Assembly: GCA_018303505.1 (NCBI GenBank)
Contig: JAGVYA010000020.1
Location: forward strand, 97 to 64,096
Direction: 5' to 3'
Source of the DNA: Candidatus Woesearchaeota archaeon
GTDB lineage: Archaea; Nanobdellota; Nanobdellia; Woesearchaeales; GW2011-AR4
DNA: 64,000 nt
Shown: in pieces, positions 33,011 to 34,723 of the stretch
Position numbering within the stretch: the first letter of the stretch is position 1
Layout of the letters: every line of letters starts with the position of its first letter
Notes under the pieces: generated by a model
Databases searched by the model: none
The model's input: only the letters and a program-made list of their open reading frames with translations
Told to the model about the DNA's origin: nothing
Translations under genes and position numbers: made by a program

Positions 33011-33931
33011 ATGAAGCACACGCCTAGAGTAATTATTGCCTTGGTTTTATTTTTCTTCATAGCGCAATTCACAGGCTTGCTGGTGATAAATCATTACATT
33101 GACCACAAAAAGACTATTGAAACAAAAGCAGTTGCTTGGCAGCCATTGCCGTACAACCTTGAAAGGCCTGAAGTGAAAAATCAAAGTGCATCTTTCATTT
33201 ATATAACCATAGCAATTTTAATTGGCACAATTTTGGTCTTGCTGCTGATAAAATTCAACAAGCCGTTTATTTGGAAACTATGGTTTTTTCTTACAGTATG
33301 GCTTACTCTGGCAATTGCATTTGCAGCATTCATAAACAATATTATTGCAGCTGTTATTGCTTTGATAGTATCAATTTTAAAATTATACAAGCCTAACATA
33401 ATTATACAAAATCTTTCTGAAGTATTTATTTATGGCGGATTAGCTGCGATATTTGTTCCAATAATCAATTTATTTGCTGCATTTATGCTTTTAGTGGTTA
33501 TATCAATATATGACTATATATCTGTCTTTAAAACAAAGCACATGATAAAAATGGCTAAGTTCCAGTCAAGCTCAAATGTTTTTGCAGGATTGCTTATTCC
33601 TTATGAAAAAGATAAAGTTCAACTAAATCAATCTTCAATTTCAAAATTTAAAATTAAAAAATCTATTAAAATTCCAAAAAAGCAGTCTGTTGCTATGCTT
33701 GGCGGCGGTGATATTGGCTTCACACTGATATTTGCAGGTGTAGTGATGAAAGATTTGATGCTGCAAGAAACAGTGTTAATAGGGTTCTTAAAAACTTTAA
33801 TAATACCATTTTTTGTCAGCTTAGCCTTGTCAATTTTGCTGCTTAAAGGGCAGCATAACAAATTTTATCCAGCAATGCCTATTCTTAGCTTAGGTTGCTT
33901 TGTTGGTTATTTGGTTGTTTTGATAATTTAA
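33011..33931 (+). CDS. presenilin/signal-peptide-peptidase family intramembrane aspartyl protease
   Basis: Multi-TM. ISIYDYISVF (YD), MLGGGDIGF (GxGD), YPAMP (PAL-like). Confidence 0.75.
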   Translation: MKHTPRVIIALVLFFFIAQFTGLLVINHYIDHKKTIETKAVAWQPLPYNLERPEVKNQSASFIYITIAILIGTILVLLLIKFNKPFIWKLWFFLTVWLTLAIAFAAFINNIIAAVIALIVSILKLYKPNIIIQNLSEVFIYGGLAAIFVPIINLFAAFMLLVVISIYDYISVFKTKHMIKMAKFQSSSNVFAGLLIPYEKDKVQLNQSSISKFKIKKSIKIPKKQSVAMLGGGDIGFTLIFAGVVMKDLMLQETVLIGFLKTLIIPFFVSLALSILLLKGQHNKFYPAMPILSLGCFVGYLVVLII

Positions 33932-33973: not shown

Positions 33974-34319
33974 GGGAGGACTCTGCCGGGAAGCTAGCAC
34001 TCTCCTGTCAGCGCAAACGTGCTTTAGGCGCGGTGAAGCTCTTGAAGCAGCTTGAGTCTTTGCATTTAGTCTTGCTGCTGGCGTAGAAGCTCTGCCTTAT
34101 AGGGCTTGTGCTTTTGAAAATCCGTAAGGTCTGGAAAGAAATCAACTGCGAAATCAGTTGACACTTTGTGGGACATAAAGTCCCACGTGCTCACTACGTT
34201 CGCAAAATTGACTTAAAGCAGCGGTAATCTTGAGCATTGGTGCTTATGAGTAACAGAGTGGAGTCGGTAACAAGGTAGCTGATTGCAATAACTTTTGCCC
34301 ATTCTTGAGCATGTCCTCC
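33974..34319 (+). ncRNA. unclassified structured RNA candidate (SRP RNA or RNase P RNA are the leading guesses)
   Basis: GC-enriched non-coding island in AT-rich DNA. GGAGGAC (33975-81) pairs with GTCCTCC (34313-19). Long-range helix 34050-63 with 34202-19. Hairpins CAACTG-CGAAAT-CAGTTG and GTGGGAC-ATAAA-GTCCCAC. AGGTCT-GGAA-AGA and CCTGTCA motifs. G-U pairs favour the plus strand. Confidence 0.5.
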
Positions 34320-34336
34320 TACTTAATTTTGATGAA

Positions 34337-34723
34337 ATGAAACTTGAAAATTATCTTAATAATGGAAAATTCTATATCTGGAAAGGAAAATTTGCAATAG
34401 TTAAATCCAGAAAACCTTTGCCAGATTCTTTTGCAGTCATAAAAGACAAAAATGAAATCACAGCAATAATTGGACAATCAGAAATTAATAAAAATAAAAA
34501 ACATATAATAAAGATTGATAAGAATTGGAAAATAATAACCTTTGATATGATTCTGCCTTTTGGGCTTGTAGGTTTTTTAGCTAAAATCTCAAAAATTCTT
34601 GCTGATGAAAAAATAAGCATTTTTGTTATCTCTGCATATTCTACTGATCATATTTTGATTAAAGAAAAAGATAGTAGTAAAGCAATAAATAGATCAAAAA
34701 GTATAGGATTAAAAATTAAATAA
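34337..34723 (+). CDS. ACT-domain protein
   Basis: ITFDMILPFGLVGFLAKISKILADEKISIFVISAYSTDHILIKE. Trimmed from the TTG start to ATG (MKLENYL). Confidence 0.6.
   Translation: MKLENYLNNGKFYIWKGKFAIVKSRKPLPDSFAVIKDKNEITAIIGQSEINKNKKHIIKIDKNWKIITFDMILPFGLVGFLAKISKILADEKISIFVISAYSTDHILIKEKDSSKAINRSKSIGLKIK

Follow-up and report, generated by a model that had tools for sequence, protein, structure and literature searches.

We report that positions 33974-34320 of the analysed window (the whole stretch of 64,000 nt) are, with near certainty, the single SRP (7S) RNA gene of a small, AT-rich DPANN-type archaeon, and that a 77-nt insert dividing the SRP54-binding motif of this gene is probably a bulge-helix-bulge (BHB) intron that is spliced from the transcript, a reading to which comparison with related genomes leads us to assign a probability of roughly 0.75. 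The features are collected in Table 1 (↓ marks an insertion point or predicted cut here and throughout).

Table 1 Features of the SRP RNA gene and its insert, with the insert-bearing genes of a second genus
Feature	Position	Strand	Basis or remark
TATA-box-like TTTAAAA	33945-33951	+	Sequence reading; centre ~26 nt upstream of G33974 (RNA 5′ end)
SRP (7S) RNA gene	33974-34320	+	347 nt encoded; predicted mature RNA 270 nt
Exon 1	33974-34140	+	Helix 1 5′ strand, Alu domain H2-H4, helix 5 5′ strand, helix 8 5′ strand
Exon 1, 3′ part: GGAA tetraloop and apical stem of helix 8	34133-34136 (tetraloop)	+	Model alignment, insert-less congeners
Central helix H, exonic strand AAAG	34135-34138	+	Pairs with 34212-34215; R-Y covariation, in MFE fold
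5′ bulge AA↓A	34139-34141	+	Predicted cut between 34140 and 34141; 3-nt bulge in 22/22 insert-bearing genes
Predicted BHB intron, 77 nt	34141-34217	+	Splits A↓GCA of SRP54-binding motif; comparison with congeners
Dispersed 63-nt hairpin repeat, one copy	34142-34204	+	Model R1, 87.5 bits
Repeat hairpin A	34142-34161	+	
Repeat hairpin B	34168-34186	+	
Repeat tail	34187-34204	+	
Stem h2, 3′ strand UUGA	34208-34211	+	Pairs with UCAA 34142-34145; compensatory changes
Central helix H′, intronic strand CUUA	34212-34215	+	Genus-wide geometry, covariation, fold
3′ bulge AA↓G	34216-34218	+	Predicted cut between 34217 and 34218, symmetric to 5′ cut; middle base A/G/U
Exon 2	34218-34320	+	GCA of AGCA, 3′ strands of helices 8, 5 and 1 (GUCCUCCU)
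SRP genes with insert in second genus (g37)	G104:C4:27822-28130; G079:C97:6229-6548; G144:C4:17056-17369		

With permissive thresholds, the Rfam model Archaea_SRP (RF01857, clan CL00003) matched the locus over model positions 1-317 of 317 (77.4 bits, E = 1.5e-17), and this was the only SRP RNA match in the genome carrying the window (denoted G000; a 1.3-Mb assembly, 88% complete). It is because the match is full-length, strong in E-value and the sole one in the genome that we assign the gene to SRP RNA, and the label "unclassified" in the initial annotation can be dropped. The locus falls under the gathering score of the model (96.5 bits), and the sole match at gathering threshold in the whole window was one intron-containing tRNA; at E up to 10, Rfam also gave CRISPR-DR22, lncRNA fragments, and U7 close by, all of them chance matches. 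The initial annotation had recognized a structured non-coding RNA gene with ends within one base of the model match, lying in a GC-enriched island (0.43-0.48 vs. about 0.27-0.35 in the flanks), and both observations are borne out. The TTTAAAA that it placed at archaeal TATA distance is present at a spacing of ~26 nt, which is usual for archaeal promoters, and a T-rich tract follows exon 2. The pairing ends (GGGAGGAC with GUCCUCC) are archaeal SRP helix 1 in the covariance-model alignment, where GGGAGGACU pairs with GUCCUCCU. Its two SRP-like hints were also sound: CCUGUCA represents the Alu-domain UGUNR motif (34004-34012, with CCUGUCAGC between two hairpins), and AGG-UCU-GGAA-AGA (34127-34139) is the helix 8 apex. 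The imperfect AGCA side and odd helix order that it found puzzling are explained by the 77-nt split of AGCA and by an absent helix 6. Other proposed features did not survive alignment: the pairing of GAGGACUCUGCC with ACAGAGUGGAGUC is not the conserved one, since the model pairs CAGAG with helix-5 CUCUG near 34091; the 20-mer resembling 16S rRNA lies in the 3′ strand of helix 5, varies among relatives, and resembles 16S by chance; and, of the 14-bp helix 34050-34063/34202-34219, the complementarity exists, yet it is not a conserved helix, its 3′ arm being intron sequence absent from 14 congeners.

The upstream neighbor on the same strand is a presenilin-type signal-peptide peptidase (SPP) gene (33011-33931, +; PF06550, 63.8 bits), and downstream lies an ACT-domain gene with a likely ATG at 34337. 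Viewed across loci L006-L097, the signal-peptide peptidase and SRP RNA genes are again adjacent (within 1.5 kb) in numerous members of the genus, and also in seven or more other families of the order.

SRP RNA orthologues were recovered in 53 of 61 relatives, and 36 of the 43 genus genomes have the gene; the seven genus genomes without a hit by either model or BLAST are incomplete, and we take the gene to be unassembled there. No genome searched carried two SRP RNA copies. The G000 exons share 92-93% identity with their counterparts in the closest congeners (G013, G025, G063, and G017). Insert-less congeners score 97-114 bits, over the gathering score, and the score shortfall of the others follows insert length. 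In the model alignment, G000 has 85 nt at the helix 8 apex where the model has 8 nt, and 5 nt in place of 40 helix 6 positions; its score is thus under the gathering score because helix 6 is missing and 77 nt are inserted in helix 8. The locus is therefore an SRP RNA variant without helix 6 and not a typical archaeal SRP RNA. For annotation, this means that searches at the gathering score overlook SRP RNA here and in 17 of the 52 other relatives with a match.

The insert is best delimited by comparison within the genus. Helix 8 of G000 reads CCGU-AAGG-UCU-GGAA-AGA-A↓[77 nt]↓GCA-GCGG, and the SRP54-binding motif is contiguous only with the insert removed, when it becomes the same as in G026, G029, and G033. 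Fourteen of the 36 genus SRP genes have no insert and read ...UYY-GGAA-RRA-A↓GCAGCGG, i.e., canonical helix 8, and the remaining 22 carry 21-78 nt at exactly A↓GCA, after ...UCY-GGAA-RGA-A and before GCAGCGG. Both boundaries are invariant while insert size varies, and gain or loss is always precise. The 77-78-nt form is also found in G004 and G020. Near-identical genes differ in their inserts on the SRP exon tree (G007 none, G028 52 nt, G065 22 nt, and G064 none; likewise the pair of G016 without insert and G027 with 22 nt), a tree that is poorly resolved (20 of 34 branches open), making counts of independent events rough. The base before GCAGCGG varies among A, G, and U, and because of this variation no other cut register is possible.

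A common plan is visible in all 22 inserts: exonic AARG pairs with intronic CYUA, followed by the 5′ bulge AA↓N and a 5-bp stem (h2), with A-N↓G on the opposite side. AARG spans the final two positions of the GGAA loop and two from the apical stem, and CYUA lies near the 3′ end of the insert; on the opposite strand h2 abuts CYUA directly, and A-N↓G adjoins its 3′ side. The R-Y pair covaries among distinct sequences (A-U 9, G-C 9, G-U 2, A-C 0, unpaired 0), and the gene tree implies three or more separate co-changes of R and Y, among them a series of G-C (G022), G-U (G009), and A-U (G004). All five pairs of h2 change on both sides (UCAAC/GUUGA, CACAC/GUGUG, UGUAC/GUACA, UACGC/GCGUA, UGCGG/CCGCA), and h2 is paired in 93%. 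Overall, 90% of cells pair as opposed to 25-42% with the partner slid, and the covariation score is 0.432 vs. 0.167 in shuffles, none of the 500 shuffles attaining 0.432. The middle base of the 3′ bulge varies among genomes (A/G/U), as expected for an unpaired intron base. The minimum free energy (MFE) fold of the precursor (RNAfold) contains H, bulge, and h2 in 7 of the 10 insert-bearing genes folded, G000 among them. Cuts after the second bulge base would yield GGAAAGAA↓GCAGCGG, which is the insert-less congener sequence with no base to spare.

The predicted splice motif is a relaxed BHB of the HBh′ type and not a canonical one. In G000 the central helix has three Watson-Crick pairs and a mismatch (A·A, A-U, A-U, G-C), and the A·A mismatch recurs in 21 of the 22 insert-bearing genes, only G030 having four Watson-Crick pairs. 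We call the motif relaxed because the helix next to the 3′ cut is weak: this outer helix has no covariation support, and in some species RNAfold puts the 3′ junction inside a short helix. Other arrangements were considered and rejected. Registers such as AGGUC/GACUU as central helix would remove the GGAA loop. A 56-nt intron further inside (h UCAAC/GUUGA, H GCGA/UCGC), leaving a 21-nt hairpin in the mature RNA, requires a 1x3 loop and a 5-6-bp H, clashes with the covarying hairpin A, and leaves AGCA split; nor can the 21-nt hairpin be a stand-in for helix 6, given that 14 congeners have neither.

Inserts in SRP genes of another genus of the same order (g37) bear on the same question. Three of its 13 SRP genes are 309-320 nt long with a 37-46-nt insert, which the other 10 congeners lack. 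The insertion site, C↓AGG on the 5′ strand of helix 8, differs from that of G000, and the BHB is canonical, with a 4-bp CUGG/CCAG helix and the bulges UC↓A and AG↓A; its h2 changes are compensatory (CACGUC/GAUGUG; AAGACGG/CUGUCUU), standard cuts restore the insert-less sequence, and the BHB is the MFE fold. This textbook BHB makes splicing by far the likelier reading for G000 as well. The machinery is encoded in G000: the splicing endonuclease EndA (201 aa, G000:C58; TIGR00324, 121 bits, cut-off 59.6) and the ligase RtcB (557 bits, G000:C64:9916-11259, -). The RtcB match spans a 502-aa frame with one in-frame TGA. Introns of tRNA genes in the genus of G000 lie in the D-loop, the anticodon loop, and the T-loop, so the endonuclease must accept varied sites. 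A canonical BHB could not be drawn for the homologous intron of tRNA-Pro(GGG), in which only two of four H pairs form, and the tRNA introns of G000 are thus also relaxed. ARAGORN found none of the intron-rich tRNAs, the one in the window among those missed.

We infer transcription start, cleavage, and ligation as follows. The TATA-like box would drive a 347-nt precursor, in which AAAG at the end of exon 1 would form a helix with CUUA close to the 3′ terminus of the insert. The helix would set the AA↓A bulge beside the UCAA/UUGA stem and AA↓G on the opposite strand, forming the relaxed BHB. Cleavage of both bulges by EndA 3′ of their second base and ligation by RtcB would then give a 270-nt RNA with the helix 8 sequence UCU-GGAA-AGA-AGCA-GCGG, the same as in insert-less congeners, which should be able to bind the M domain of SRP54. 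The intron interior would be mostly a passenger, a copy of a 63-nt mobile hairpin that is shared with tRNA introns of G000.

This hairpin is a dispersed repeat. Its consensus comprises hairpin A (UCAACYG-CGAAAU-CRGUUGA), CUUUG, hairpin B with an AUAAA loop, and the tail GUGCUCACUNCGUUCGCA; the perfect hairpins mentioned in the initial annotation are real and correspond here to hairpins A and B. Paralogues were first found by BLAST of G000, and a covariance model (R1) built from six copies then returned about 170 matches spread over 38 of the 43 genus genomes (1-14 copies per genome), with compensatory stem changes among copies. In G000 the repeat occupies the 37/38 introns of tRNA-Pro(CGG) and of the three-intron tRNA-Pro(GGG), from which it must be removed; further copies lie in intergenic DNA and in the 95-nt intron of the window's own tRNA (938-994). 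The 37/38 intron of tRNA-Pro(GGG) shares with the SRP intron the 63-nt repeat and the next roughly 12 nt (AGUUGAC-A/U-UAAA). The tRNA-Pro(GGG) gene with its three introns is at G000:C3:11960-12260 (-). The window tRNA (869-1031, -; Rfam 40.5 bits) has a 95-nt insert, and the R1 copy in this intron is a weaker one (25.1 bits, G000:C1:1034-1090).

Copies also occur outside tRNA genes. A 216-aa open reading frame (ORF; G000:C67:4033-4250; L058 1435-2085), IKGKEYAYIVENKWK ... RQKVKEYVGRV, contains a partial copy in frame, made up of hairpin A and a broken hairpin B; hairpin A and further GC-rich hairpins add about 54 residues to it with no stop codon. In G061 (C3:170041-170110) a variable hairpin of RNase P RNA harbors the repeat, immediately past the GAGGAAAGUCC core and with no obvious BHB; at that place the RNase P RNA of G000 (391 nt against 288 model positions) contains another, different segment of ~40 nt. 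About 300 nt from the SRP RNA of G030, a tRNA T-loop intron contains two repeat-like hairpins (G030:C46:108480-108700). In relatives, copies are found in many tRNA introns and antisense directly upstream of genes. Antisense copies (L067, L074, L081-L083, and L086) abut either a Shine-Dalgarno-like AGGTGA or the neighboring gene's start codon, and on that strand the hairpin-B loop reads TTTAT.

G000, G004, and G020 carry the repeat in their SRP introns yet are not sister taxa on the exon tree, and the 36-nt intron of G031 looks like an internal deletion of a repeat-bearing form. The nested repeat may have invaded an older, small intron or may have seeded the intron. Rickettsia palindromic elements and the bacterial REP/BIME sequences are hairpin repeats found in intergenic DNA, RNA genes, and protein genes. 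The present repeat resembles them in being short, dispersed, and placed in intergenic DNA, in RNA genes, and in frame in protein genes; it differs in its archaeal host, in the many copies within introns, and in that no mobilizing enzyme or transposase has been identified.

That the repeat may sometimes be retained in gene products, as its copies in the RNase P RNA hairpin of G061 and in the 216-aa ORF suggest, bears on the main alternative to splicing, namely that the mature SRP RNA keeps the insert, which would extend helix 8 as an expansion branch at a three-way junction and be tolerated because it points away from SRP54. The imperfect BHB, with A·A in H and a weak outer helix, would also fit such a branch. 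We consider it unlikely, since the insert interrupts AGCA, a universally conserved part of the SRP54-binding loop, and the covarying AARG/CYUA helix takes its exonic strand from the GGAA loop and the apical stem, so that its persistence would destroy the SRP54 site. Free variation in size between invariant boundaries, with precise gain or loss, and the textbook BHB at another helix-8 site in the second genus also argue against retention. Much less probable still is an SRP RNA pseudogene broken by the mobile hairpin, with a working gene in the unassembled 12% of the genome. The assembly lacks SRP54 and the Rfam score is under threshold, as such a pseudogene would allow, but the exons retain 92-93% identity to those of the four closest congeners with all motifs intact, the 77-78-nt form recurs in two other genomes, a second copy is seen in no genome, and synteny with the upstream SPP gene is kept. 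A different structured RNA (RNase P-like, as had been suggested, or of a new class) with chance SRP fragments, to which the score below gathering and the missing helix 6 might point, has a negligible probability and is refuted by the end-to-end RF01857 match, by the RNase P RNA of G000 on another contig (G000:C18:14577-14967, 99.3 bits, over its threshold) together with the lack of any RNase P (RF00373) match at the SRP locus in the Rfam search up to E 10, and by insert-less homologues that pass the threshold. With RNase P RNA located on that other contig, the RNase P-like hints of the initial annotation are due to chance.

Apart from the predicted intron, the RNA is unusual in its S domain. 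Only about 10 nt (UUUUGAAAAU) separate the 5′ strand of helix 5 from helix 8 in G000, and members of the order that were inspected likewise have ~10 nt there, too little to accommodate helix 6. A phylum sample yielded SRP RNA in 95 of its 101 high-quality genomes; nearly all of these RNAs are 263-278 nt long, and judging from these sequences helix 6 is missing across the lineage. The protein SRP19 (PF01922) was detected in none of 61 relatives and none of 121 phylum-sample genomes by a model that also missed Sulfolobus, one of four archaeal controls; given the limited sensitivity of this Pfam model, SRP19 is best described as not detectable in the phylum sample, its absence being unproven. In contrast, the SRP54 M domain (PF02978) was present in 24/24 congeners and in 39 of 41 genomes searched overall. 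It was not found in the 88%-complete G000 assembly, whose SRP54 gene is probably on an unassembled piece.

The long, Bacillus-type bacterial SRP RNA is about 270 nt long and has an Alu domain and helices 5 and 8, with no helix 6 and no SRP19. The predicted 270-nt mature RNA of G000 would have the same parts and length, and SRP54/Ffh would bind helix 8 without SRP19 in both; the G000 RNA differs in having an archaeal helix 1, in scoring best with the archaeal model, and in its archaeal host. Without helix 6 and with no detectable SRP19 across the phylum, this would be an archaeal SRP with a bacterial-style S domain, in contrast to a 2010 review that reports SRP19 in all archaeal groups, coexisting with helix 6 (PMC2905702). 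A passage of another paper (PMC6098224) cites SRP19 as dispensable in Haloferax.

Our literature search found, within the library that it covered, no paper describing an intron in SRP RNA. Among introns of other genes, the closest likeness is with the relaxed HBh′-type BHB introns of archaeal pre-tRNAs, which, with their transposition, were reportedly described by Fujishima and colleagues in 2010 (Mol Biol Evol 27:2233). The G000 motif shares with these introns a 3-nt bulge, a helix of roughly 4 bp, a second 3-nt bulge, and cuts after the second bulge base, as well as one strong and one weak flanking helix and the occurrence of related intron sequences in several RNA genes per genome. It differs in that the host gene encodes SRP RNA instead of tRNA, and that the shared part is a nested mobile hairpin and not the whole intron.

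The nearest known case in an SRP RNA gene is the circularly permuted gene of Thermoproteus tenax and T. uzoniensis (Plagens et al. 2015, eLife, PMC4731332), for which these authors postulate that the ancestral gene had simple BHB introns. Non-canonical tRNA introns are abundant in both hosts. The G000 gene, however, is collinear with a simple intron, so that its product would be linear and not circular; its site is A↓GCA of the symmetric loop and not the loop tip; and its RNA has no helix 6, in a lineage without detectable SRP19, whereas both helix 6 and SRP19 are present in Thermoproteus. Splicing was seen by RNA-seq in Thermoproteus, while in G000 we infer it from comparison.

A broader and more tentative interpretation, which we regard as possible but would not favor, is that helix 8 is a recurrent landing site for BHB introns that come from, or are carried by, mobile hairpins moving between tRNA genes and unrelated RNA genes. 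The Woesearchaeal genes, with two genera, two sites, nested repeats, and repeated precise gain or loss, might then be living examples of the simple-intron ancestor postulated by Plagens et al., and assembly of the SRP in these cells would require the tRNA splicing machinery. The two independent helix-8 intron sites would represent the collinear simple-intron stage, proposed yet unobserved for permuted SRP RNA (PMC4731332), and the nested hairpin repeat shows how mobile DNA can reshape the interior of an intron. Should the insert be spliced as we propose, an essential and universally conserved RNA of the secretion pathway would depend on the tRNA intron machinery.
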